DNA from: a virus
Virus genome (UHGV): UHGV-0124752
Direction: 5' to 3' (one strand)
Length of the DNA: 29,426 nucleotides
Shown here: in pieces, positions 4,026 through 29,426 of the stretch
How positions within the stretch are numbered: the stretch's first letter is position 1
Layout of the letters: each line of letters opens with the position of its first letter
The notes under the pieces: generated by a model
Seen by the model: only the letters and a program-made list of their open reading frames with translations
What the model was told of the DNA's origin: nothing
Database searches by the model: none
Made by a program: the position numbers and the translations under genes

Positions 4026-4439
4026 ATGGACAGATACTTCTATTCACAAAAAGAAAATGGTTTTTTTACCGATTTAAATAAAGCACCTTCAGATGCTGTT
4101 GAGATAACCACGGATGAATGGCTGTTACTACTGGATGGTCAGGATAATGGCATGAAAATAGTCAGCAATCAGGAGGGATATCCGGTTTTGACAGAGCAAC
4201 CACCTTTATCAAAAGAAAACCTTATTGCATTGGCGGATTTGAAAAAAAGAAAACTTATTAATGAAGCCAACGAGCACATGAACAACAGACAATGGCCTGG
4301 TAAAGCGGCTATTGGTCGTCTGAAAAGTGAGGAACTGGCGCAATATAATTTGTGGCTGGATTATCTGGACGCACTGGAACTGGTCGATACTTCCGGTGCG
4401 CCAGATATTGAATGGCCTACGCCTCCGGTGGTGGAGTAA
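4026..4439 (+). CDS. Tail fibre assembly chaperone paired with the alternative cassette
   Basis: 137 aa; N-terminus MDRYFYSQKENGFF and C-terminus LVDTSGAPDIEWPTPPVVE are typical of enterobacterial Tfa proteins; starts 3 bp after the alternative cassette. Confidence 0.8.
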   Translation: MDRYFYSQKENGFFTDLNKAPSDAVEITTDEWLLLLDGQDNGMKIVSNQEGYPVLTEQPPLSKENLIALADLKKRKLINEANEHMNNRQWPGKAAIGRLKSEELAQYNLWLDYLDALELVDTSGAPDIEWPTPPVVE

Positions 4440-14710: not shown

Positions 14711-16477
14711 ATGAACACCACACTGACACCCGCAGATCTCGATCCCCGTCGGCAGGCCATGCTGCTGTACTTTCAGGGATACCGCGTAGCCCGCATTGCT
14801 GAAATGCTGGGCGAGAAAGTTGCAACCGTTCACAGCTGGAAAAAACGCGACAAGTGGGGTGACTATGGGCCGCTGGATCAGATGCAGCTCACCACCGCCG
14901 CACGTTACTGCCAGCTCATTATGAAGGAGCACAAAGAAGGGAAAGATTTCAAAGAAATTGATCTGCTGGCGCGCCAGTCGGAGCGCCACGCGCGGATCGG
15001 CAAGTTTAACAATGGCGGCAACGAAGCCGATTTAAACCCTAACGTCGCCAACCGCAACAAAGGCCCGCGCCGTCAGCCTGAAAAGAATGTTTTCACCGAT
15101 GAACAGATTGAGAAGCTGGAAGAAATCTTCCATTCCTCCATGTTCAACTACCAGCGTCACTGGTGGGAAGCCGGAAAAACCAACCGCATCCGCAACCTGC
15201 TGAAGTCACGCCAGATCGGCGCGACCTTCTATTTTGCCCGTGAAGCCCTGATTGACGCCCTGCTAACCGGACGTAACCAGATTTTCCTTTCTGCCAGTAA
15301 GGCACAGGCGCACGTCTTTAAGCAGTACATCATCGACTTCGCCAAAGAAGTGGAAGTGGAGCTGAAAGGCGATCCGATGGTGCTTCCCAACGGGGCCACA
15401 CTGTATTTCCTCGGCACCAATGCCCGCACTGCCCAGAGTTACCACGGCAACCTGTATCTGGATGAATATTTCTGGATACCGAAATTCCAGGAGCTGCGCA
15501 AAGTGGCTTCCGGTATGGCTATTCACAAAAAATGGCGACAAACCTATTTTTCCACGCCATCCAGCCTGACCCACAGTGCTTATCCGTTCTGGTCCGGTGC
15601 GCTGTTCAACCGTGGACGCAACAAAGCCGACAAGGTGGACATCGACCTGTCCCACAGCAATCTGGCCCCCGGCCTGCTGTGCGCAGACGGGCAATACCGC
15701 CAGATAGTCACCGTAGAAGATGCGGTGCGCGGCGGCTGTAACCTGTTCGACCTTGACCAGTTGCGCATGGAATACAGCCCGGACGAATACCAGAACCTGC
15801 TGATGTGTGAGTTCGTGGACGATCTCGCGTCCGTGTTCCCGCTCAGCGAGCTGCAGGCGTGCATGGTGGACAGCTGGGAAGTCTGGACCGACTTTCATGC
15901 ACTGGCCCTGCGCCCGTTTGGCTGGCGCGAAGTGTGGATCGGTTATGACCCGGCAAAAGGTACGCAGAACGGCGACAGCGCCGGATGCGTGGTGGTGGCA
16001 CCGCCAGCCGTGCCGGGCGGTAAGTTCCGCATTCTTGAGCGTCACCAGTGGCGCGGAATGGACTTCCGCGCCCAGGCTGACGCCATCAAAAAACTGACCG
16101 AACAGTATAACGTGACCTATATCGGCATCGACTCGACCGGCGTCGGTCACGGGGTTTACGAGAACGTGAAAGCGTTTTTTCCTGCCGTCCGGGAGTTTGT
16201 CTACAACCCCAACGTTAAAAACGCCCTGGTACTCAAGGCCTACGACATTATCAGTCACCGCCGCCTGGAATTTGACGCCGGACACACCGACATTGCGCAG
16301 TCATTCATGGCAATCCGTCGCGCCACCACCGCCAGCGGCAACCGCCCGACCTATGAAGCCAGCCGCAGCGAAGAAGCCAGCCATGCCGATCTGGCCTGGG
16401 CAACAATGCACGCACTGTTTAACGAACCGCTGCAGGGCGAGTCCGCCAATGCCAGCAATATTGTGGAGATTTTTTGA
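14711..16477 (+). CDS. P: Terminase large (ATPase) subunit
   Basis: 588-aa ORF divergent from O and followed by the portal gene with a 4-bp overlap. Confidence 0.9.
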   Translation: MNTTLTPADLDPRRQAMLLYFQGYRVARIAEMLGEKVATVHSWKKRDKWGDYGPLDQMQLTTAARYCQLIMKEHKEGKDFKEIDLLARQSERHARIGKFNNGGNEADLNPNVANRNKGPRRQPEKNVFTDEQIEKLEEIFHSSMFNYQRHWWEAGKTNRIRNLLKSRQIGATFYFAREALIDALLTGRNQIFLSASKAQAHVFKQYIIDFAKEVEVELKGDPMVLPNGATLYFLGTNARTAQSYHGNLYLDEYFWIPKFQELRKVASGMAIHKKWRQTYFSTPSSLTHSAYPFWSGALFNRGRNKADKVDIDLSHSNLAPGLLCADGQYRQIVTVEDAVRGGCNLFDLDQLRMEYSPDEYQNLLMCEFVDDLASVFPLSELQACMVDSWEVWTDFHALALRPFGWREVWIGYDPAKGTQNGDSAGCVVVAPPAVPGGKFRILERHQWRGMDFRAQADAIKKLTEQYNVTYIGIDSTGVGHGVYENVKAFFPAVREFVYNPNVKNALVLKAYDIISHRRLEFDAGHTDIAQSFMAIRRATTASGNRPTYEASRSEEASHADLAWATMHALFNEPLQGESANASNIVEIF

Positions 16478-17508
16478 TGGGAAAGAGTAAGAAGAACCGC
16501 GCTGCGTCGACGAACCAGAACCAGCATAAAAGCCAGACTTCAGCCGAAGCATTCAGCTTCGGTGATCCCGTTCCTGTTCTGGACCGCCGCGAACTGCTGG
16601 ACTATGTGGAATGCGTACAGATGGATCGCTGGTATGAGCCGCCCGTCAGCTTTGACGGACTGGCACGAACCTTCCGCGCCGCCGTGCATCACAGCTCACC
16701 GATTGCGGTGAAATGCAACATTTTGACCAGCACCTACATCCCTCACCCGCTGCTCAGCCAGCAGGCTTTTTCGCGTTTTGTGCAGGACTATCTGGTTTTT
16801 GGTAACGCCTACCTGGAGAAACGCACGAACCGCTTCGGTGAAGTTATCGCCCTTGAGCCTGCGCTGGCAAAATACACCCGACGCGGGTTAGACCTGGATA
16901 CCTACTGGTTTGTGCAATACGGTATGACAACCCAGCCATATCAGTTCACGAAAGGCAGCATTTTTCATCTGATGGAACCGGACATTAACCAGGAGATCTA
17001 CGGCTTGCCCGGCTATCTTTCTGCCATTCCGTCCGCCCTGCTCAATGAGTCCGCCACGCTGTTCCGTCGAAAGTATTACATTAACGGCAGTCATGCTGGC
17101 TTCATCATGTATATGACCGACGCCGCGCAGAACCAGGAAGATGTGAACAACCTCCGCAACGCGATGAAAAGCGCCAAAGGTCCAGGCAACTTCCGCAACC
17201 TGTTTATGTACTCGCCTAACGGCAAAAAGGACGGGCTTCAGATCATCCCGCTGTCAGAAGTCGCAGCGAAGGATGAATTTCTGAACATCAAGAACGTGAG
17301 CCGGGACGACATGATGGCTGCACACCGTGTGCCGCCGCAAATGATGGGGATTATGCCGAGCAATGTAGGTGGGTTTGGAGATGTGGAGAAGGCCAGTCTG
17401 GTATTTGTACGTAATGAATTAATTTATCTACAAGGGCGATTAAAAGAAGTTAATTCTTGGGTGGGCGAAAAAATTATTTCATTCACCCAATACACTTTAG
17501 ATAATTAA
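16474..17508 (+). CDS. Q: Portal protein
   Basis: 344-aa ORF; the last ~36 codons are visibly AT-rich compared with the rest. Confidence 0.85.
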   Translation: MMGKSKKNRAASTNQNQHKSQTSAEAFSFGDPVPVLDRRELLDYVECVQMDRWYEPPVSFDGLARTFRAAVHHSSPIAVKCNILTSTYIPHPLLSQQAFSRFVQDYLVFGNAYLEKRTNRFGEVIALEPALAKYTRRGLDLDTYWFVQYGMTTQPYQFTKGSIFHLMEPDINQEIYGLPGYLSAIPSALLNESATLFRRKYYINGSHAGFIMYMTDAAQNQEDVNNLRNAMKSAKGPGNFRNLFMYSPNGKKDGLQIIPLSEVAAKDEFLNIKNVSRDDMMAAHRVPPQMMGIMPSNVGGFGDVEKASLVFVRNELIYLQGRLKEVNSWVGEKIISFTQYTLDN

Positions 17509-17559: not shown

Positions 17560-18306
17560 TTAGTTTCTATAATTAGAAATATAGTCATCCATTTTAGCCT
17601 GCTCTATGATTCCACTATTTTTAATATACAAAACATTTGCCCAATCAAAATACTCACAAAGAATAACAATCATAGTCAAAAGCTTTTCATCAGTCATATT
17701 TATTAACAGCTCATATTGCTCAGCTTTTTTTTCACTTTCAACTTTATCATCTATCAACTTCACCAAAAGATAAAATCTTCTTACCAAAGAGAAAAAATGA
17801 TCATCAACATCTAAACTTTCCAACCATGCAATGATTCTTTTCTTTTCTATTCCAGCTCTAACCAAGATGCTCAAGTTATCATCAATGAAAGTTATAGCAT
17901 TATTAGATCTATACTCAATAAGTGTAGGTTCTTTGGTCCCCCCCCCTTTACTTTCATCATCATTATCTGCTCCATTACCGATTACAATACGCAATTTATT
18001 ATAATTAGAATCTTGAGATTCAATTAGACAGAAAAACCTCACTTCAAATTTTTTGTAATCTTCAAGTAACTCTTGTCTTTTTATCTCTTGTTTCAATGTT
18101 GAGTTAGACTGCACTTGTAAAGTTACAGAGCGAATCAGCAGGCAAATCGAGATAAAACTTAGTATAGGATTCAGGACCCCACCCATGAAGTCCCCAAATT
18201 GCCCCCAAACATCAGCATCTTGAGTACTTAAGTACCAGGGGCCAAACTTAATACAATAAACCCCCAAAACTATTATTATGAGAGCTAAACAAATTATTTT
18301 TAACAT
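17560..18306 (-). CDS. Cargo protein, unknown function: two N-terminal transmembrane helices plus a cytoplasmic domain
   Basis: 248 aa; hydrophobic helices LKIICLALIIIVLGVYCI and GGVLNPILSFISICLLI; AT-rich codon usage unlike the phage core; start 1 nt after the upstream gene's stop. Confidence 0.7.
   Translation of the reverse strand: MLKIICLALIIIVLGVYCIKFGPWYLSTQDADVWGQFGDFMGGVLNPILSFISICLLIRSVTLQVQSNSTLKQEIKRQELLEDYKKFEVRFFCLIESQDSNYNKLRIVIGNGADNDDESKGGGTKEPTLIEYRSNNAITFIDDNLSILVRAGIEKKRIIAWLESLDVDDHFFSLVRRFYLLVKLIDDKVESEKKAEQYELLINMTDEKLLTMIVILCEYFDWANVLYIKNSGIIEQAKMDDYISNYRN
17938..17946. repeat. Homopolymeric C9 tract (G9 on the coding strand) inside the membrane-protein gene
   Basis: ctttggt ccccccccc tttac; the minus strand reads aaa ggg ggg ggg acc, encoding KGGGT in frame. 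Confidence 0.8.
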
Positions 18307-18307
18307 C

Positions 18308-19126
18308 TTACTGCACCGTATGCACTAAATATTTCACAGTTTCCCCACTGTTAATTATTACCCGACTTACAGTCAGTTCAAGATAAATATAGCCAGCAGT
18401 GGAAGGCGGATTATTTACATGTAAGTTAGCCGAAATCATTCTTTTTTGAGCTGGAATGATGACACGTAAGGGGCTATAAAACCCAAATGCCACCGTATCA
18501 TTTTCGCCCTCAAGAACAAGCCTACCATTGCCAGTGCGAGCATTAAATCTTGTAATATAAGCCCTGATTACTTCAGTCTTTTTTAAAACACGTGATGTGA
18601 ATAAATTTGTTGCAGTAGATGTATCTAATTCAATTACTTTTTTCTTATCATGGGCACGCTGTTTAAAATTTAACTCGATATTATAGTTTTTTTTGAGATT
18701 AATTTCATGCATTCTTTTTAGAGGAGCTCGAATACGACCTATCAACTCATCCTCAATATCCGATAAACCTTTAACTACTTCTTCCGCTTCATTGGAAAGT
18801 TCGCGACTCTCTAAATATAATGATTGCGAAATAAAGAAACTCATCACTTCATTAAATACTGGTTTAGATATTTTGCGAAGTTCTGATACCAGTTCAGCAT
18901 CATTAATAACCAAGTCAAAATTTTGACCATAAGAACCGGTGAAATTCCTCTTGAGTACAGCCCTTGCAGGATTTACATGAGAGCGGCGCTTTATTATTAC
19001 TTTCCTAAGTATAGCCTCCGCCAACAAGCAAGTAACCTCTGCAGTTCCTGCAAGCGTGTCGAGACCGTATTCCATATCTACTTCATCATCGCCGCTTTTG
19101 ATAATAACATCGTAATTAACTCGCAT
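18308..19126 (-). CDS. Cargo protein, unknown function (soluble, 272 aa), first gene of a two-gene operon
   Basis: AT-rich ORF with RBS aaggaaag ahead of the ATG; I recognise no family motif. Confidence 0.7.
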   Translation of the reverse strand: MRVNYDVIIKSGDDEVDMEYGLDTLAGTAEVTCLLAEAILRKVIIKRRSHVNPARAVLKRNFTGSYGQNFDLVINDAELVSELRKISKPVFNEVMSFFISQSLYLESRELSNEAEEVVKGLSDIEDELIGRIRAPLKRMHEINLKKNYNIELNFKQRAHDKKKVIELDTSTATNLFTSRVLKKTEVIRAYITRFNARTGNGRLVLEGENDTVAFGFYSPLRVIIPAQKRMISANLHVNNPPSTAGYIYLELTVSRVIINSGETVKYLVHTVQ

Positions 19127-20039: not shown

Positions 20040-22454
20040 TTAATACAGGTTCCGCCAATGATCATCTTCCTGCAAACGCTGGTTCCGATAGAAGATACGC
20101 AGGCCTGCTCCTGACGGAATACTGCCTCCGCGAAGGAGTAAATCGACCTCTTTCTCGCTGCCATCAAATCCTCTGGACTTCAGCTCATACACGAGCTGCA
20201 GTCGCTGATGGTCTGTAATTCGCTGTTTGTAGTCTTTACGCCGTTTCGGTTTCACCAGGCATAACCTTGCTGCCAGTTCCCGGCGCTCTTTTTTGCTCAT
20301 ACTGTGCAGGTAATCGTGCAACTCCTTGTCATCCATGCTGGTAATGTCCGTTCTGGGGTCCCCATCAGCTGATTTATCTTTCTCCTGTTGGTTCAAATTT
20401 TCAGCAAGGGGACAGTTATTGCCACGAGTCCAAGGGGCGCAAGCGCCCTGGTCGGCTGCCGCCTCCTGAACGTCAACGGCCTTACGAACCATTTTCCACT
20501 TCACCGCATGAGTGCAGATCTTGCCCTCTGCAATGGGTGACCAGATGCCATAAATACGAATACCGTGATCGCCATATGCGGTCGGTTCTTCGTTGATTTC
20601 ATAAGCAGTTCTGATGAGGTGATATTTGCGGGGAACCAGTACGCCGCCCTGCTTCATGATGTAGGTGGCAAAACAACCAGCATCAGCAGCAGCCAGGATT
20701 GCATCAAGGCGCGGGTTATCCAGTACCGGCGCACCTGCTTTTTTGTCCCCCTGTTGCCTTGCCGCCTGACCAGCCAGCAATCGCAGTTCACGGTAAGCCT
20801 GACGCCCCGGAATGCCAAAGAAGCGGAATTGCTGAACACGATGCAGAGACGCCCAGGCATTAACGTATTCAGCGTTATCACGCAGGGATTTACCCGTTTC
20901 CTTGCTGATCTCGCCAGCCAGACCACGCCCGTCAATGTTCTTACTGATGTATTTCGCGATGTAGCTTGTTGGCGTACCTTTGCGCGGGTTTATCAGCTCA
21001 GACTTAAAGCGTGGTCCCGTGTTATTACCCAGCTCCTCGCGGTCTTCACGAATGGCAAACTTACGCAACAAAGCAGTAATGGTGCGGCGATCTTTTTTGC
21101 GCATAAAACACAACAGGTGCCAGTGAACTGTACCGTCATGATGCGGCTCAGCCACCCGCACGCCATACCAGCGCAATCCGGCTTTGTGCATCGCCTTACG
21201 AAATGCAGCAAACATGCCGACCAGATAATCACTGCTTTGTCTTACCGTCGTATTTGTCCAGGTCGGGTTGGGCCTGCCGTTATTTAGCGTGGAATGGAAA
21301 CGTGACGGACAGGTGATGGTGTAGAAAACGGCGCAGTCACCGCGCATTTCCGCGATAAGCTCCAGACCTTTAACACAGGCCATCATCTCATTGCGGCGAT
21401 GCGCAGGGTTGCTGCTGCTGGCGTTTACCACATCCTCCATGTCCAGCGTGTCGCCGTCTTCGTTCACCAGTTCATGAGAACGGAAAAACTCCAGCGACTT
21501 ACGGCGCTGCTCACGTTTATGCATCACGGCTTCATAGCTGACATAGGGAGATGCTTTTTTGCTGACCAGGCAAACAGCACGCAACTGCTCTTCCCGCCAT
21601 TCGCAACGCATCTTCCATAATTTCCGGTACCACCAATCGGCGCACAACATACGCGCCAGCGAACCCGGAATGAGTTTATAGGGCACGGGTTTACGGCGGT
21701 TTCTTTTCCGGCGGAGTTGCTCAAACGCAGGCGGTATGACATCCAGTCGCAGGGTTTCTGCTGCCACCTTTTCCCATGTCTTGCGGATTTCTTCTGGCTT
21801 AACGTCATCGGTGGCATACAAATCGCCACAAGCTGCATCAAGGCACATGCTCATATGCGCAGCAACAAGGGTGGACAGGCGTTTCACCTGATCCTGACTC
21901 ATTTCAGGTAGGATCAGCAGGCCGTCCAGCCCTTCATGGCTTGCCATAAAGCGAAAAGAAGTGGATAGCTGACTGTCGCGTACATGCTCCAGCCGTTCCA
22001 GACATGGCTTAATCGTCTCACGCAAATAGCGGGAATAAGCCTTTGGCCTGCCAAGGCTGCTGAAGTATTCAATACGTTGCATCAGCGGCCTGCTGATATG
22101 GGAAGGCTGGGCGTTAACGTCTGCCAGAATGACCATGTCCGGGTTAAAACGCTGCTGCTCATGCGCCAACTTTGCCCGGCTAATGAGCTTATCCTGCTCC
22201 ATTTCGCGCTGGACAGGATCACGGGATTCATTAAAGAAATAACGCTCCCAAACCTGATCACTCAGTGCCTCGCGGCGCAGTTGTTCCTGCTCGTTATCGG
22301 CAGCGTACAGAGTGATCAGGTTTGAAAGCGCAGAAACCGGCGCAACTTCCGCCGGGTCCAGATAAGGGTTAATAGCCTTTTTCGGGCTGTTCCATGAGAA
22401 TGCTGCGGCGGCCTCGTTAAAGCCGCTGCAGTTGTTCATATCAGCATGGCTCAT
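20040..22454 (-). CDS. A: Replication initiation protein (rolling-circle type)
   Basis: 804-aa ORF in the early operon, in the position of P2/186 gene A. Confidence 0.85.
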
Positions 22455-24421: not shown

Positions 24422-24595
24422 TTTGACTTTCTCCGTTTCCTCGTGGTCAATTCAGACAGCAATTCATCTTGTGAATGACATGGATGCCAGCGTTTACCAT
24501 CCTCACCCATGATCCAGCCGTGACCGTAGTGCATTGCCGGGCTTTGTTTTACCAGCAGCGATGCAAATGATGGTTCTTTCGTCAGCATAAGCACC

Positions 24596-25105
24596 TCACA
24601 GCAAACCGAATGAAGCACCGAGGCCAGTCACGGTATCAACTGCACTCGCCATCGCAGGATTAGCCTGTAAACGGGCCTGCAATGAAACAGCCGCCAGCGC
24701 CATCAGTCGTGTTACAGAATTAATGCTGCTGATCGCATCGCGACGGCCTGCACTGGTTTTTACATCGCCAGAAACCGCACCTGCAGCAACACGCCCGATC
24801 TCTGCGGTTGCACTCATGACGTAATGTGGCAGTCTCTCTTTTGCCACCTCATTTACCGGTATACATGGCAGGCAGTGAATCTGAGCCAGAAATCCATCAA
24901 CCAGTGTTGGGTCTTCAGTGAGATCGGTTAACTGCCAGATATCTGACGCAGTAAGTTGGTGTGGTTGTTCCGGGTTGAGCTTGTTACGCAAGGTTTGAAC
25001 GTTCATACCTGCGCGCTCTGCCAGCTTCGCCATGTTGTGTCGTAGGGCGAAGGCCCGGCAGGCTTCATTGAAATGGGGATGTTTTGAAATGCGATAGTCA
25101 AACAT
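24596..25105 (-). CDS. cII: CII-like lysogeny establishment regulator (phage 186 type)
   Basis: MFDYRISKHPHFNEACRAFALRHNMAKLAERAGMNVQTLRNKLNPEQPHQL... closely resembles 186 CII as I recall it. Confidence 0.8.
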   Translation of the reverse strand: MFDYRISKHPHFNEACRAFALRHNMAKLAERAGMNVQTLRNKLNPEQPHQLTASDIWQLTDLTEDPTLVDGFLAQIHCLPCIPVNEVAKERLPHYVMSATAEIGRVAAGAVSGDVKTSAGRRDAISSINSVTRLMALAAVSLQARLQANPAMASAVDTVTGLGASFGLL

Positions 25106-25137
25106 AGTCAGTTGCTCCGTGAAGTCTCAAAATGGAA

Positions 25138-25359
25138 CTAGTTGATAGTCACGTTGCAATCAGAGAGGGCATCGATCGTCATCGCAGCAATGTTAATCAT
25201 CACTTTTTCACGCTTTTTATCCTTACGTAGGCGATGACGAGGCAAACGCCCATCTGCAAGCATGTCGTTAATTGTGTCGATAGATAAGCCAGTGAGTTCA
25301 CTATATCTTTCTATAGTAACGTGGGGGGTGATGAGAGTGATTGAAATGTTAGGTCTCAT
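25138..25359 (-). CDS. apl: Apl/Cox-like excisionase and transcriptional repressor
   Basis: Small basic HTH protein, first gene of the lytic operon, divergent from cI; start placed at MRPNISITL. Confidence 0.65.
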   Translation of the reverse strand: MRPNISITLITPHVTIERYSELTGLSIDTINDMLADGRLPRHRLRKDKKREKVMINIAAMTIDALSDCNVTIN

Positions 25360-25383
25360 GATGCAACATTCCTCTTTTAGCAA

Positions 25384-25478
25384 TGATTAATCAGGATGAA
25401 TACTGATCGTTTGTATTATGTGAACACTGCAAACATACGATCACATCATGAAATCGTCAAGGTAAAAGTTCACTTGGA
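25384..25478. promoter_or_regulatory. Lysis-lysogeny switch region (promoters and operators between apl and cI)
   Basis: 95-bp AT-rich intergenic region between the divergent repressor and apl/cox genes; individual operators not resolved. Confidence 0.5.
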
Positions 25479-26048
25479 GTGACCATGAATTTGGAAAAAG
25501 GCGGTCGTGGGGCCATAGAGCGCATGGTTGAAGCCTATGGTTTCAAGACAAGACAAGCTTTGTGTGATCATTTGGGCATTTCTAAAAGCACCTTAGCCAC
25601 GCGCTATATGCGTGATTCATTCCCGGCAGAATGGGTAATCCAATGTGCACTTGAAACCGGCACGTCGCTAGAGTGGCTAACTACTGGGCAAGGTTCAAAA
25701 GAAAGTTCACAAAAAGAAAACACAAAAGAGATCGAAAGGAAGATTTTATCAAGCGGAAAACTACTTCCTGATGGTTACTACATTTTCGACAACAACTTTT
25801 TGCCTGAAAAACTAAAAAAACCTTTTGTTGTGATCGATGGCGCATCAGAGTTTATCTGTGATTCGGATTATGAGGATGTACGTGATGGTAAGTGGATCGT
25901 TGATATTGATGGCGAGGTTGCTATCAGGAATCTGACAAGACTGCCGGGGCGTCGTCTAAATGTCGATGGTGGCAGCAGTTCCTTTGAATGCAAAATAGAT
26001 GAAATTGATATCATAGGAAAAATTAGAAGCGCGATCGTCAATTATTAA
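25479..26048 (+). CDS. cI: Immunity repressor, phage 186 CI type
   Basis: 189 aa; ...EAYGF...[15 protein letters not shown]... N-terminal HTH region and [23 protein letters not shown]-terminal region resemble 186 CI. Confidence 0.8.
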
Positions 26049-26071
26049 AATTAATGTATAAGGAAATAAAT

Positions 26072-26257
26072 ATGTTTTATAAATCTATACATATCCTACT
26101 TATTTGTTTATTTATTACTTTACCTATTACAAGTTTTGCAAAAAATTATCCATGTTCTGGTAAGAAAGGGGGAGTTTCACATTGTACATCTGATGGGAAG
26201 TTCGTTTGCAATGATGGAACGCAAAGCAAGTCAAAGAAAATATGTTCTAAAAACTAA
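26072..26257 (+). CDS. Small secreted cysteine-rich peptide
   Basis: Signal peptide [23 protein letters not shown], then about 38 residues with four Cys; RBS aagga; very AT-rich. Confidence 0.5.
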
Positions 26258-26268
26258 GGTTGCTTCAT

Positions 26269-27600
26269 ATGAATAATGATATGACTTTTGAAAACAGAGA
26301 TGAGTATAATAGAAAAATCATTGCTGAAAAAATAATAAGCTTACTCGAGTCCCCCTTAAAAATATCCCCTATTGTTATCGATGGGGACTGGGGTACCGGT
26401 AAAACCGAATTTTCAAAAAAATTAGCGGCATTGATTGAAAAAAATGAATCTGGGCATAAAGTAGTATATATTGATGCATTTACTGAAGATCATAATGATG
26501 CTCCCATACTTACTATAATGGCTGCAATAGTTGCATTATATCCAGAGAGTGAAAAGAAGGAATTAATATCAAAGGCATTACCAGCATTGAGATTTGGACT
26601 TAAAACTGTACTCAAAGCTGGCGCTGGGTGGATTTTAAAACAAAATGCAGATGATATTGCGGATGAATTCGAAGATGCTATTAAAGATGCGGCTAACTCA
26701 GCTATAGATGGTACTGTAGAAGCACTGCTTGATGATCATATTGAAGCAAAGAAACATTTGCTTGCTCTCAAGGAAGTACTTGCTGAACTAACTAGCGAAA
26801 ATAAAATAACAATTATCATTGACGAACTTGACCGTTGTAAACCAAGCTTTGCCATCTCTATCATCGAAAATATAAAACATGTTTTTGACACTGAAAATCT
26901 TAACTTCTTGTTAGTTGCTAACATCTCACAATTGAAAGCATCAATAAATCATATTTACGGTGCAGGTGTTGACTCAGAAAGATATCTTGATAAATTTATA
27001 AAATTCACTTACAGCCTGCCAGTGACTTTCACTGAAAACAATTACGATAAAATTTTGGCTTCGAACTCTCATTTTAGAATGCTATGTAACGAGTCTGAAA
27101 GACTAAAAGAAATTGGAGAAAGTAGTATTCATATAGTTCAAAAATTTATCGAACTAAAAGGCTTGTCGCTACGGGAAGTTGAAACCTTATCAAGATATCT
27201 AGAAATTTATCAAATTTTATCTCAAAATGAAATCAGCAATAAATTTATACCAGGCTATTGCTGTTATCGAACCCTTGCAGTAATTCTTTATTCGTTTGGT
27301 CGTGAACTGGCCCTTAACTACGTAGAAGATAAAATAGATGCACAATTAATAATTAATTTCTTCGGTGTTAATAGACTCCCATATCAGACAGATCAATATA
27401 ACATCAACATCTACTATTATGCATTATTTGGTATAACTTATAAATATATGCCAGAAGGTTCTCCTTTACTTCCTTCTGAAAACGATGAAAAAAACAGATG
27501 GGCTGAAATAAGTGATTATCATATTTTAAAAGGAAATGCAGGTGTAGAAGACCCTGTTAGAATATTCAAAAACACCTTAAAAGTTTTCTTGCTCCAATGA
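26269..27600 (+). CDS. KAP-family P-loop NTPase
   Basis: Walker A IDGDWGTGKTEF and Walker B IIIDELDRC; AT-rich. ORF track starts at a TTG (26260); ATG 26269 has an RBS. Confidence 0.8.
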   Translation: MNNDMTFENRDEYNRKIIAEKIISLLESPLKISPIVIDGDWGTGKTEFSKKLAALIEKNESGHKVVYIDAFTEDHNDAPILTIMAAIVALYPESEKKELISKALPALRFGLKTVLKAGAGWILKQNADDIADEFEDAIKDAANSAIDGTVEALLDDHIEAKKHLLALKEVLAELTSENKITIIIDELDRCKPSFAISIIENIKHVFDTENLNFLLVANISQLKASINHIYGAGVDSERYLDKFIKFTYSLPVTFTENNYDKILASNSHFRMLCNESERLKEIGESSIHIVQKFIELKGLSLREVETLSRYLEIYQILSQNEISNKFIPGYCCYRTLAVILYSFGRELALNYVEDKIDAQLIINFFGVNRLPYQTDQYNINIYYYALFGITYKYMPEGSPLLPSENDEKNRWAEISDYHILKGNAGVEDPVRIFKNTLKVFLLQ

Positions 27601-27657
27601 AATGTTTGATTGAAGATCTTTAAACATTGACCACTGTTCAAACATACAGTTAAATTT

Positions 27658-27682
27658 AGTCCTCAGACATGAGGACTTTTTT
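27658..27682 (+). terminator. Rho-independent terminator abutting the int start codon
   Basis: Hairpin agtcctc / gaggact followed by TTTTT; the int ATG is at 27683. Confidence 0.55.
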
Positions 27683-28735
27683 ATGGCAGTACGAAAACTC
27701 ACCACAGGAAAATGGCTGTGCGAATGTTATCCCGCCGGACGTAGTGGACGTCGTGTGCGTAAACAATTCGCCACCAAAGGCGAAGCTCTGGCTTTTGAGC
27801 GTCACACGATGGAAGAAACCGAAGCAAAGCCTTGGCTAGGTGAATCAGTGGCTCGTCGAACACTGAAAGACGTGGTTGAGCTATGGTTCAAATTACATGG
27901 TAAATCTCTGACTGCTGGGCAGCATGTCTATGACAAATTGCTGCTGATGGTTGACGCTCTGGGCAATCCTCTTGCAACCGATCTCACCTCTAAAATGTTT
28001 GCCCACTATCGAGATAAACGCCTGACAGGTGAGATCTACTTCAGCGAGAAATGGAAGAAAGGAGCCAGCCCGGTCACCATTAACCTGGAGCAAAGCTATC
28101 TAAGTAGTGTTTTTAGCGAACTATCCCGCCTGGGCGAATGGTCGTATCCAAACCCACTGGAGAACATGCGAAAATTCACCATCGCAGAAAAAGAGATGGC
28201 ATGGCTTACCCATGAGCAGATTGTTGAACTGCTGGCTGATTGCAAACGTCAGGACCCAATTCTGGCACTGGTAGTCAAGATATGCTTAAGCACAGGCGCA
28301 CGCTGGCGAGAAGCAATAAACCTTACCCGATCACAGGTGACTAAATACCGAATTACCTTTGTAAGAACGAAGGGGAAGAAAAACAGAAGCATCCCTATCA
28401 GTAAAGAGCTTTATGAAGAGATCATGGCGCTTGATGGGTTCAATTTCTTCACAGACTGCTATTTTCAATTTTTATCCGTGATGGAAAAAACGTCAATCGT
28501 GCTCCCTCGCGGTCAACTGACACACGTTCTGCGCCATACGTTTGCGGCACATTTCATGATGTCGGGTGGAAATATCCTTGCTTTGCAAAAAATCCTCGGA
28601 CATCACGATATAAAAATGACTATGCGTTACGCTCATCTGGCACCGGATCATCTGGAAACGGCGCTCCGTTTCAATCCTCTGGCAACGCTGCCAAGTGGCG
28701 ACAAAGTGGCGGCAGCGGTTGGCATTACCCCGTAA
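27683..28735 (+). CDS. int: Tyrosine integrase (P2 family)
   Basis: 350 aa with the conserved C-terminal catalytic region (ARWREA, HVLRHTFA, MTMRYAHL with Tyr). Confidence 0.9.
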   Translation: MAVRKLTTGKWLCECYPAGRSGRRVRKQFATKGEALAFERHTMEETEAKPWLGESVARRTLKDVVELWFKLHGKSLTAGQHVYDKLLLMVDALGNPLATDLTSKMFAHYRDKRLTGEIYFSEKWKKGASPVTINLEQSYLSSVFSELSRLGEWSYPNPLENMRKFTIAEKEMAWLTHEQIVELLADCKRQDPILALVVKICLSTGARWREAINLTRSQVTKYRITFVRTKGKKNRSIPISKELYEEIMALDGFNFFTDCYFQFLSVMEKTSIVLPRGQLTHVLRHTFAAHFMMSGGNILALQKILGHHDIKMTMRYAHLAPDHLETALRFNPLATLPSGDKVAAAVGITP

Positions 28736-28756
28736 TAACCACCACTGACCACCAAC

Positions 28757-28790
28757 CTAACTTATTGTTTTTAATCTAACTTATTGTTTT
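28757..28790. repeat. Two direct 15-bp repeats next to int (candidate arm-type sites or att region)
   Basis: ctaacttattgtttt at 28757-28771 and again at 28776-28790. Confidence 0.45.
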
Positions 28791-28839
28791 CATTAACCCG
28801 TTTACATAAATGGGTTTTTTGTTATCTAAAACTTATCTA

Positions 28840-29376
28840 CTACCCTGCAACCCTCTCAACCATCCTCAAAATCTCCTCGCGCGATAGCGGCTTACGGTCG
28901 GTGACAAAATGCAGCGTCATCCCCTCAATAAACGCATCAAGCGCGCGGGCGGTTCCGGGTTCAAACCATTGTTCGAGCGTTTGCTGACTGCGCTGCATCC
29001 AGTTTTGCATTACCGTTTTTAATAGCGGTTTTCGGCTAGCCAGCGCGTAGAGCTGGTACATCAGCTCCATGTTATCCGGCGTTGCAACCTGTGAGCTGTA
29101 GATCATATCGGTGATAGCCTGGCATGCGCCCGGAGCATCACTAACATCGCTAAAAAATGCCTGATATTGCCGGGACATGATCTCAGTAAAACTGCTGAAC
29201 GCCTCCAGTAACAACTCATCAATTCCTGAAAAATAGTAGGTCATCGATCCCAACGGTACCCCGGCAAGGGTAGCAATTTTGCGGTGCGTAACAGCATGTA
29301 TTCCGTAAAGTTTCACCGCCTCCAGCGTGGCCTGGATAATTTTTTCTCGCCGTTGCGGATCGTTAGCGCGACGCAT
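28840..29376 (-). CDS. rcdA: TetR-family transcriptional regulator, probably host chromosome
   Basis: N-terminal TetR HTH ([24 protein letters not shown]); 178 aa from MRRANDPQ; recalled as E. coli YbjK/RcdA-like but not verified. Composition differs from the phage cargo. Confidence 0.7.
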
Positions 29377-29426
29377 GTCATTTCCTCTCTCTGCAATTGT
29401 GTACAAATGTACACAACCTTGCTAAT

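Follow-up and report, generated by a model that had tools for sequence, protein, structure and literature searches.

Two cargo genes separate the repressor gene from the integrase gene in an Escherichia coli 186-like prophage, one for a small exported peptide of the YdcA family and one for a soluble KAP-family NTPase. Comparison of gene neighborhoods indicates that these are two separate morons, independent passengers of the interval and not a two-part system, because each gene is far commoner without the other at related loci. The joint explanation that we favor, and consider reasonably probable, is that both are independent cI-int passengers, with ydcA serving as an exclusion or conversion factor and the KAP gene encoding an anti-phage sensor ATPase.

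Organization of the lysogeny region

The window analyzed here is a whole stretch of 29,426 nucleotides of viral DNA, and the part examined covers the lysogeny end of a 186-like (P2-family) prophage of E. coli, whose integration site lies beside rcdA. The cI repressor gene (25485..26048, plus strand; longest open reading frame starting at GTG 25479) opens the lysogenic operon, to which the cargo also belongs. It was assigned from the Pfam families Phage_CI_repr (E 3.1e-33) and Phage_CI_C (E 6.2e-29), and RefSeq names it "phage repressor protein CI" in a near-identical locus (L001). The tyrosine integrase gene of the P2/186 type, int, follows the cargo at 27683..28735 on the plus strand (Int_N, E 2.6e-31; Phage_integrase, E 7.3e-22). 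Beyond int and the prophage end lies the host gene rcdA (28840-29376, minus strand), placed by the RefSeq annotation of L001, whose host flank names rcdA, ybjJ and ybjI.

The initial annotation described an AT-rich insert between the repressor gene and int, and base composition bears this out, with a GC fraction of 0.30-0.35 across 26001-27500 as against about 0.53-0.59 in most of the prophage, where other low-GC patches also exist. Near-identical copies of the cargo region, annotated in RefSeq, are present in 9 complete E. coli genomes, and the cargo reading frames are therefore not chance occurrences. A search of 24500-29426 for RNA families or meaningful repeats found none.

The cargo of the cI-int interval varies, and slots of this type are known hotspots. 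That a cargo slot adjoins int had been proposed at the outset, and the varied content of the interval in related prophages confirms it; phage 813R9, for example, carries a DUF4041-T5orf172 gene in the same position. Among P2 defense systems, 8% sit between int and the primase gene. A cI-int defense hotspot has been described for the K139-like P2-related phages of Vibrionaceae (PMC9122126), whereas the slot studied here belongs to E. coli 186-like prophages.

Co-occurrence of the two cargo genes

The secreted peptide and the NTPase were originally read as one paired module, and a survey of their co-occurrence was set beforehand as the refuting test. The unusual pair, as first posed, does not hold, since the two genes part company in both directions. 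DNA of the ydcA type is found in about 641 of 5426 complete E. coli genomes, and about 43 of the 5426 have a KAP match that spans 80% or more of the gene. In the viral contigs with ydcA that were examined, cI lay directly upstream in 80 of 80; 72 of these 80 ran straight on to int without KAP and six carried KAP. The commonest E. coli YdcA allele likewise stood in the order cI, ydcA, int, without KAP, in all 10 places examined, and in Haemophilus phage HP2 the order is cI, an unannotated YdcA-like reading frame, a different secreted protein and int.

The separation is equally clear from the side of the NTPase. The survey set comprised 80 loci from different species, whose neighbors within 5 kb were searched for a YdcA-like reading frame, and none of these 80 species-level loci had one. 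Clustering of the neighbors across the 80 loci returned restriction-modification (R-M) subunits and assorted defense genes as the only recurrent partners, and no conserved small secreted reading frame. In 186-like prophages of E. coli (L181) and Serratia (L019), KAP stands between cI and int without ydcA, and in Rahnella (L020) another upstream gene takes the place of ydcA before KAP in the same slot. KAP without the peptide gene also occurs in a P4-like element and in lambdoid prophages.

The alternative is that peptide and NTPase form a single exclusion or abortive-infection module, in which a cytoplasmic NTPase might, for instance, be joined to a sensor or toxin in the periplasm. The two genes do share a strand, and the 11 nt that separate them contain no terminator. 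Two diverged allele pairs of E. coli have also retained both genes, the second with a KAP allele that is only 71% identical, and so has Enterobacter ludwigii, in which a single 1.55-Mb contig encodes both proteins. The close spacing and this retention make a lineage-specific functional link conceivable. Besides the distribution described above, in which the same slot holds KAP alone or ydcA alone, a membrane-spanning segment able to link periplasm and cytoplasm is absent from both the mature peptide and the NTPase, and PADLOC models the NTPase family, PDC-S20, as a single-gene candidate. We therefore give a joint module very little chance of being correct and treat the two genes as independent passengers in what follows.

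The YdcA-family peptide

The first reading of this DNA noted a small signal-peptide protein with four cysteines, and such a protein is indeed encoded at 26072..26257 on the plus strand as a precursor of 61 residues. The longest reading frame extends over 26054-26257, and ATG 26072 is the likely start because an AAGGAA Shine-Dalgarno sequence 5 nt upstream, the RefSeq annotation and the homologues all agree on it. Hydropathy and composition predict a signal peptide (26072-26140, plus strand), with a Kyte-Doolittle 19-residue maximum of 2.09 and a cleavage-type site between SFA and KN. The predicted mature product (26141-26254, plus strand) is a basic peptide of 38 residues with four cysteines and eight Lys/Arg residues versus two Asp/Glu.

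The peptide is very likely a member of the YdcA family (PF27300; NCBIfam PRK10040 group). It matches NCBIfam NF007463 (E 4.8e-25) with 87.1 bits, just below the equivalog cut-off of 93, as well as phrog_6000 (E 4.5e-26), and RefSeq names it "YdcA family protein". The local copy of Pfam was one without PF27300, hence the zero matches of the peptide there; precomputed annotations do assign PF27300:YdcA to 98%-identical proteins and to the allele linked to cI. In an alignment spanning Enterobacterales, Haemophilus and Moraxella the mature part is near-invariant and the signal region variable. The core reads PCSGKKGG-x-HC...F-x-C-x-DG...S-x-SK-xx-C, with four cysteines, and follows an N-terminal signal peptide in the protein encoded here. 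Invariant positions in the alignment are P27, C28, S29, G30, K31, K32, G33, G34, V35, H37 and C38, and further on F44, C46, D48, G49, S52, S54, K55 and C58.

The structure of the peptide was modeled with moderate confidence (pLDDT 73). A profile of the YdcA family matched Dis2 (7muc_AN) with E 9.8e-6, and a Foldseek comparison of the peptide model with the same chain gave a probability of 0.89 at 39% identity. All other Foldseek matches of the 61-residue model had E > 1 and are not credible, so that Dis2 is the only credible one. Dis2 is a Legionella periplasmic component of the Dot/Icm outer-membrane cap (PMC8486379). The YdcA domain appears homologous to the disulfide-pinned lobes of Dis2; the difference is that Dis2 is a two-lobed component of a secretion machine, whereas the phage peptide is one domain standing alone. 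In other bacteria the domain is joined to non-specific nucleases that are secreted; among 61 longer members of the YdcA family, five are fused to Endonuclease_NS and one to SNase.

These features suggest how the peptide might act. In this phage lineage ydcA is the usual resident immediately after cI. Its product would be exported by the predicted Sec signal peptide to yield the lysine-rich peptide of 38 residues, which is probably held by two disulfides. At the periplasmic side of the outer membrane this peptide may dock on DNA or on some structure of the envelope. We suggest, with low certainty, that the peptide could be a lysogenic-conversion or superinfection-exclusion factor, by analogy with Glo, the periplasmic exclusion protein of Vibrio phage K139. 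The parallel consists in a secreted product from the lysogeny region, and glo presumably lies between cI and int in K139. Any function assigned to YdcA draws on a distant relationship to a single structural protein and on fusions in a minority of family members, and is of low certainty.

Instead of excluding phages, YdcA may be directed at the host, as a conversion product that modulates the envelope or stress, or that aids virulence or colonization, or it may be a plain accessory gene. E. coli also has chromosomal YdcA-family genes, NCBIfam lists several "hypothetical protein" equivalogs, many of the 412 cluster representatives of the family are not obviously phage-borne, and Dis2, the sole solved relative, belongs to a secretion machine. 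On the other hand, temperate phages of four genera carry a YdcA-type gene at different genomic positions, a recurrence typical of morons that protect the lysogen from other phages, and fusion to secreted nucleases points to DNA; none of these arguments is decisive. We consider a host-directed or accessory role somewhat unlikely and retain exclusion or conversion in the favored account. A broader version of the exclusion reading, which we think rather improbable as a whole, is that the YdcA-type peptide is a widespread but unrecognized, CI-co-transcribed factor of P2/186/HP1-type and other temperate phages, in which a disulfide-bonded, Dis2-type mini-domain would dock on the periplasmic side of the outer membrane, or bind incoming DNA there, and so keep out superinfecting phage or foreign DNA; in other bacteria the domain would target secreted nucleases to the same place. 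On this reading the peptide may prove to be more novel than the NTPase. A peptide of this type lies inside the repressor operon of about one-eighth of complete E. coli genomes, and the links to Dis2 and to nucleases give a testable hypothesis.

The KAP-family NTPase

The second cargo gene (26269..27600, plus strand) starts exactly 11 nt past the stop codon of the peptide gene. Every element that the initial annotation had attributed to it is present, namely a P-loop NTPase of 443 residues, the 11-bp spacing, and KAP-type Walker A and B motifs. Membership in the KAP family was confirmed by HMM search against Pfam KAP_NTPase (PF07693; E 3.8e-51; 174.5 bits against a cut-off of 20; residues 19-318, profile 2-290 of 293), and RefSeq names the protein "KAP family P-loop NTPase fold protein". 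Across 29 homologues there is no variation at the Walker A residues G39, W41, G42, G44 and K45, and almost none at T46 (at least 90% conserved); the motif, G39-T46, is encoded at about 26383-26406 on the plus strand. The Walker B motif D185-E186-L187-D188-R189-C190 (DELDRC; about 26812-26838, plus strand) is invariant in 29 homologues.

Many KAP proteins have transmembrane helices inserted inside the NTPase domain. A check for such insertions came out negative, as the protein has no transmembrane segments (Kyte-Doolittle 19-residue maximum 1.1) and the insert that separates its Walker A motif from Walker B (residues 93-174) was modeled as a long soluble helical hairpin at low confidence. The absence of inserted helices thus identifies it as a soluble KAP variant. 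The C-terminal helical region, encoded from about 27050 on the plus strand, diverges fast; the two E. coli alleles that are 71% identical overall share 80-90% in the N-terminal part and only 45-58% in the C-terminal part.

The protein matches the PADLOC model PDLC04956 of PDC-S20 over nearly its full length (E 1.1e-171; residues 4-444, profile 1-447 of 450), and three more PDC-S20 models match with E 1e-60 to 2.6e-28. PADLOC treats PDC-S20 as a single-gene candidate system, which is a bioinformatic prediction, and no paper in the literature searched mentions it. The likeness consists in a full-length, single-gene match and in relatives found in defense-island and R-M-embedded contexts; what differs is the location of the gene studied here, in the cI-int slot of a 186-like prophage. 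A fold search with the KAP model returned RdrA (of RADAR) and BrxC as the closest solved folds, followed by ORC/Cdc6, DnaA and clamp-loader ATPases. At the sequence level, the KAP profile matched nothing in the PDB.

Several characterized anti-phage systems resemble the protein in part, and each was considered and rejected as its identity. RdrA is a KAP-domain ATPase of about 800-900 residues that forms heptameric rings and works with the deaminase RdrB. The resemblance is structural only (11-16% sequence identity), and with 443 residues and no deaminase gene at the locus the protein is not a member of RADAR. PifA, the T7-exclusion protein of the F plasmid, shares the KAP-type P-loop module (E 2e-15, residues 8-255), and the match is confined to this NTPase part (profile 11-255 of 720). 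QatA of QatABCD also shares the P-loop module (PADLOC E 2.4e-10), but the NCBIfam QatA score is 42.9 bits against a cut-off of 600, and the neighbors are ydcA and int, with no qatBCD. Tmn, a transmembrane KAP-type NTPase with experimental defense (10.1101/2022.08.21.504612), is, like PifA and QatA, an anti-phage NTPase; it has transmembrane helices whereas the protein studied here has none, and no Tmn model was among the PADLOC matches up to E 1. Reve, a KAP protein from the P4-satellite hotspot, protects against Drexlerviridae (10.64898/2026.02.27.708500) and is similarly a single KAP/AAA-domain protein on a P2/P4-type mobile element. It has 586 residues, and BLASTP similarity to its synthesized sequence, taken from the dataset of that preprint, extends over only 14 residues around Walker A (E 0.003), which places it in a different family.

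Genomic contexts and proposed role of the NTPase

By themselves, relatives of the KAP gene occupy four kinds of mobile setting, namely the cI-int slot of P2/186-like prophages, the Q-lysis moron slot of lambdoid prophages, a P4-like satellite, and type I R-M loci. Across the 80 loci the relatives share a single-protein architecture of about 445-470 residues. The gene hsdR lies directly downstream on the same strand in 27 of the 80, hsdM lies upstream in 22, and the full arrangement of hsdM, intermediate reading frame and hsdR occurs in 18. Other domains encoded by the neighbors include Abi_2, SIR2_2, Mrr_cat, YhcG and Fic. We found no literature on KAP genes in type I R-M operons, and KAP is mentioned neither in the work on R-M-embedded defenses (10.1101/2024.01.29.577857) nor in an E. 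coli functional-selection paper.

By analogy with these systems and contexts, we infer that the KAP NTPase may be an anti-phage sensor ATPase. It is an autonomous single-gene cargo that moves among prophage slots, satellites and type I R-M operons, and a minority of the prophages of this lineage have acquired it in the stretch from ydcA to the backbone hairpin. The N-terminal P-loop module would bind and hydrolyze ATP and drive oligomerization, as in RdrA and ORC-type rings, and the fast-diverging C-terminal helical domain might recognize a phage-derived trigger. The mechanism past ATP binding is conjecture; the protein has no recognizable effector domain, and at the effector step it might abort the infection or stop the phage from replicating or assembling. 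Enterococcus KAP proteins have been shown by experiment to defend, with a requirement for Walker B (PMC12632615). The defense proposal that was originally made for the module is thus plausible for KAP by itself, given the PDC-S20 match, the defense contexts and the RdrA and BrxC folds, and fails as a joint role with the peptide.

The frequent association with R-M genes raises the possibility that KAP acts as a guard in the manner of PrrC, silenced by a type I R-M complex and firing once this complex has been disabled by an anti-restriction protein of a phage. On this view the copy in the prophage would either cooperate with the type I enzyme of the host or have become autonomous. Type I R-M loci are the commonest chromosomal setting of KAP, and the position between hsdM and hsdR is apparently that of prrC, which we take to occupy this slot in the prr locus. 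PrrC is reported to be silenced by the type I R-M enzyme to which it is linked, and an anti-restriction factor of the phage activates it (PMC2610378). However, KAP stands alone in prophages and in the satellite, with no hsd genes nearby, and the protein is without a nuclease or other effector domain. The PADLOC match to PrrC extends no further than the Walker A region (E 0.003), and PrrC was rejected as its identity; moreover, many unrelated defense genes are commonly embedded in R-M operons (10.1101/2024.01.29.577857). We judge the guard reading to be unlikely.

Still less probable, in our estimation, is that KAP serves the prophage itself, as an ORC/DnaA-like ATPase for replication, partition or maintenance of lysogeny, or as a selfish addiction element. 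The position of the gene inside the lysogeny operon, and the replication-type ATPases that come after RdrA and BrxC in the fold search, would agree with such a role. The anti-phage sensor remains our preferred reading. If KAP does defend, PDC-S20 would gain experimental standing as a family spread over prophages, satellites and R-M operons of many Proteobacteria, and the cI-int interval of E. coli 186-like prophages would join the list of defense hotspots. A soluble protein of 443 residues without a recognizable effector domain would then also offer a compact model for how KAP/RdrA-type ATPases sense and stop phages.

Transcription of the cargo and the hairpin before int

The gene spacing and the lack of internal terminators suggest that the cargo is co-transcribed with cI. 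The cI-int cargo would be read through from the lysogenic promoter, and the cargo genes would therefore probably be made in every lysogen, with the conserved hairpin before int damping transcription. Inside the AT-rich insert, promoter-like matches numbered 12 versus 10.1 ± 2.6 in shuffled sequence and are not above chance. A consensus scan located one promoter-like element, TTGACC-18-TAAATT (27627..27656, plus strand), in the phage backbone, where it is conserved in prophages without KAP. This element marks the right-hand end of the cargo insertion; CATTGAC(C)ACTG is the exact point at which homology with two related prophage loci (L006 and L002) starts again.

The strong terminator before int that had been counted as part of the module exists, in that a terminator scan found a hairpin with a T-run at 27658..27682 on the plus strand (the hairpin itself at 27658-27677), abutting the int start codon ATG 27683. 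It belongs to the phage backbone, however, because it is present with or without cargo. Its 3' arm carries the int Shine-Dalgarno sequence (GAGGA), and from these features we regard it as a predicted backbone terminator and RBS-sequestering element that is no part of the cargo. The folding energy is -13.7 kcal/mol (z -3.7), as compared with -19.4 and -20.2 kcal/mol in L006 and L002, with z from -3.7 to -4.6 over the three. The stem sequences differ among the three loci and the position of the hairpin is the same.

Organization of the cI-int interval

The final 5 kb of the window belong to an E. coli 186-like (P2-family) prophage and make up its lysogeny end: minus-strand cII/apl-type genes are followed by cI (25485-26048), a small open reading frame (ORF), a 443-aa ORF and int (27683-28735), and then by rcdA, a host gene. 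The initial annotation had placed an AT-rich insert between the repressor gene and int, and the composition bears this out, with a GC content of 0.30-0.35 across 26001-27500 as compared to ~0.53-0.59 for most of the phage; further low-GC patches are present elsewhere in the phage. The small ORF, ydcA, probably starts at ATG 26072, in agreement with RefSeq and homologues; an AAGGAA Shine-Dalgarno sequence lies 5 nt upstream of this codon. Its product is, as had been described, a small signal-peptide protein with four cysteines: the 61 residues comprise a hydrophobic, signal-like N-terminus ending at an SFA/KN junction and a basic, four-cysteine mature peptide of 38 aa. The 443-aa P-loop NTPase gene (26269-27600) does begin 11 bases past the ydcA stop codon, and its assignment to the KAP family was confirmed by HMM search (Pfam KAP_NTPase, E 3.8e-51). 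Both genes would be expressed from pL, and the most likely picture is one of two independent morons co-transcribed with cI. Between the int stop codon and rcdA, at 28754-28790, lie two direct copies of AA(C/T)CTAACTTATTGTTTT with a spacing of 19 nt, possible arm-type sites for integrase binding in the attachment region.

ydcA and the KAP gene are independent

The two genes had been proposed to form an unusual peptide-NTPase pair. The decisive comparison is with the commonest E. coli YdcA allele, a 63-aa protein (67% identical) that is listed in 19,603 index blocks: in 10 of 10 places examined, it belongs to a 186-like prophage at the same rcdA site and has the order cI, ydcA, int, without a KAP gene. 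Among the best 80 of 478 viral contigs encoding a relative, cI is directly upstream of ydcA in all 80, ydcA leads straight to int with a gap of ~195 nt in 72, and only six carry the KAP gene. Of 5426 complete E. coli genomes, 641 have ydcA-type DNA, and 43 have DNA covering at least 80% of the KAP gene, nine of them with the window allele. Conversely, hmmsearch detected no YdcA-like ORF at any of 80 KAP-family loci, nor at the satellite, lambdoid, Serratia and Rahnella KAP loci or in an E. coli prophage with the order cI, KAP, int (L181). Since ydcA usually occurs without KAP and KAP loci occur without ydcA, the two genes are independent; in this phage lineage the repressor operon usually contains ydcA, and KAP is an occasional insertion beside it. 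Of the original interpretation, the assignment to the KAP family, the status as cargo and a likely role in defence stand, and the pairing does not.

In Haemophilus phage HP2, a distant P2 relative, the start of a YdcA-like ORF (L003 2920-3102 = NC_003315 complement 2486-2668) overlaps the cI stop codon, and a gene for a different secreted protein separates this ORF from int. YdcA-like ORFs are missing from the GenBank annotation of Haemophilus phages HP2 and S2 and of Acinetobacter Vieuvirus phages; further members of this unannotated set are L179 52-240 and L180 2754-2942. Moraxella and Acinetobacter phages have ydcA at other positions, with neither cI nor KAP nearby.

The boundaries of the insertion were examined by aligning the window with a ydcA-only prophage and a second KAP allele. 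Homology continues through ydcA up to its stop codon and restarts at a promoter-like sequence, CATTGAC(C)ACTG, followed by a hairpin adjoining int. The strong terminator annotated before int is present, as a hairpin (27658-27677) with a T-run that abuts the int start codon, but it does not mark a cargo boundary, since the ydcA-only prophage has it too. In all three loci the hairpin keeps its position while the stem sequences differ, and it is thus a backbone element (window 27658-27682; L006 4351-4380; L002 6515-6545; folding energies -13.7 to -20.2 kcal/mol). The int Shine-Dalgarno sequence is inside the 3' arm of the hairpin. Expression of int from the lysogenic transcript is probably limited by this element, which may act both as a terminator of the cI-operon transcript and as a mask on int translation.

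The KAP NTPase is a candidate single-gene defence protein

Among PADLOC defence-system HMMs, the NTPase gave a full-length match to the single-gene candidate family PDC-S20 (E 1.1e-171, residues 4-444), and weaker matches to PifA (E 2e-15) and QatA (E 2.4e-10) that were confined to the NTPase module. The annotated Walker A and B motifs are invariant in 29 homologues, Walker B reading DELDRC. The AlphaFold model (pLDDT 80, pTM 0.74) has three parts: a P-loop core; an insertion between the two Walker motifs (residues 93-174) in the form of a long helical hairpin that is poorly defined; and an all-helical C-terminal region. The point between the Walker motifs is the site of membrane helices in many KAP proteins; the transmembrane segments that were looked for are absent here, with a hydropathy maximum of 1.1. 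Neither a recognisable effector domain nor a sequence homologue in the PDB was found. The two E. coli KAP alleles beside ydcA are 80-90% identical in the N-terminal NTPase part and 45-58% in the C-terminal 180 residues, consistent with a C-terminal specificity domain under diversifying pressure.

A pattern search taking one genome per species returned the 80 KAP-family loci, whose proteins are 37-55% identical and very uniform in length (mostly 445-470 aa). Neighbour clustering placed hsdR directly downstream on the same strand at 27 loci and hsdM upstream at 22, the complete set of hsdM, an intermediate ORF (presumed hsdS) and hsdR being present at 18. The HsdR and HsdM identities are backed by Pfam; a 123-aa upstream fragment had no match in a Pfam search. 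Among the remaining neighbours are proteins with Abi_2, SIR2_2, Mrr_cat, YhcG-PDDEXK and RhuM-Fic domains. Closer relatives are found in further mobile settings: in Citrobacter and Klebsiella lambdoid prophages, as a lone gene that separates antiterminator Q from the holin-lysis genes; in a P4-like satellite of Salmonella houtenae; and in the cI-int interval of Serratia, Rahnella and another E. coli lineage. Such a distribution is as would be expected for autonomous single-gene defence cargo.

The inserted, soluble, single-gene PDC-S20 protein would most likely be an ATP-dependent anti-phage sensor, its variable C-terminal recognition domain sensing the trigger. Enterococcus KAP-domain proteins have been validated as defences that require Walker B (PMC12632615), and Tmn is a transmembrane KAP defence (10.1101/2022.08.21.504612). 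Reve, from P4 hotspots and validated against Drexlerviridae (10.64898/2026.02.27.708500), is likewise a single-gene KAP-domain protein, but identity with it was rejected because the extracted Reve sequence is unrelated to the window NTPase beyond Walker A. No paper was found on PDC-S20 by name. This candidate family and the very common cI-linked YdcA peptide both merit experiment.

The YdcA domain

RefSeq names the small product a YdcA family protein, and near-identical proteins have a precomputed assignment to the Pfam family PF27300:YdcA. The mature core, ending F-CNDG-S-SK-C, shows almost no change from E. coli to the phages of Haemophilus and Moraxella; the signal peptide is variable. A profile search over 1.84 billion cluster representatives found 412 members, including tandem-repeat forms and N-terminal fusions. 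Among the 61 of at least 100 aa, the YdcA domain is followed by Endonuclease_NS in five and SNase in one; in some bacteria it is fused to secreted nucleases (representatives P0286, P0288, P0250 and P0204). The profile also matches both disulfide-pinned lobes of Legionella Dis2 (Lpg0823; PDB 7muc chain AN; E 9.8e-6), to which the peptide model aligns at 39% identity. Dis2 belongs to the Dot/Icm outer-membrane cap and lies in the periplasm, close to the outer membrane; it has no known function, and its original authors found no structural relatives (PMC8486379). We infer that the YdcA domain acts in the periplasm as a disulfide-stabilised module for docking or DNA binding, and the resident secreted peptide would probably have an envelope- or DNA-related function. 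It may plausibly contribute to superinfection exclusion or lysogenic conversion, for which there is a precedent in glo of the K139 family, described as a periplasmic-protein and immunity gene (PMC4870250).

Other cargo in the interval and nearby

The cI-int interval is empty in SopEPhi and holds a 349-aa protein of no assigned identity in Klebsiella phage 4LV2017. Escherichia phage vB_EcoM-813R9 has a DUF4041-T5orf172 protein there (L016 991-2667); it is labelled 'chromosome segregation ATPase', and its DUF4041 and T5orf172/MUG113 (GIY-YIG-like) domains make defence-type cargo more likely than a segregation protein. In a Rahnella inusitata prophage, a 329-aa protein of no assigned identity (L020 4003-4992; 310 aa from an internal ATG at 4060) lies between cI and KAP, its stop codon overlapping the KAP start. 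Pfam and PADLOC searches gave no match; it may be a lineage-specific partner of KAP or another passenger. A cI-int defence hotspot has been described in K139-like P2-related prophages of Vibrionaceae (PMC9122126).

In related prophages at this rcdA site, additional genes lie beyond int and before the host junction (L013 5508-6491; L015 5566-6794; L007 5471-5740; L181 6503-6772), in a second small slot for cargo. The cargo types are a DUF4917 protein, a SocA_Panacea protein with a 251-aa protein of no assigned identity, and an 89-aa ORF. These genes fit the int-att hotspot mentioned in 10.64898/2026.02.27.708500.

The first cargo module of the window (17560-19126, minus strand) consists of two AT-rich genes encoding 248 and 272 aa, flanked by the portal gene (16474-17508) and replication gene A (20040-22454), which is the position of the classic old/tin defence hotspot of P2. 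Pfam gave no match for either protein. The 248-aa protein has N-terminal hydrophobic segments and the only PADLOC matches, a weak ZorB/MotB-like one (E 3e-4) and PDC-M43A (E 0.009); the module looks like an uncharacterised two-gene candidate.
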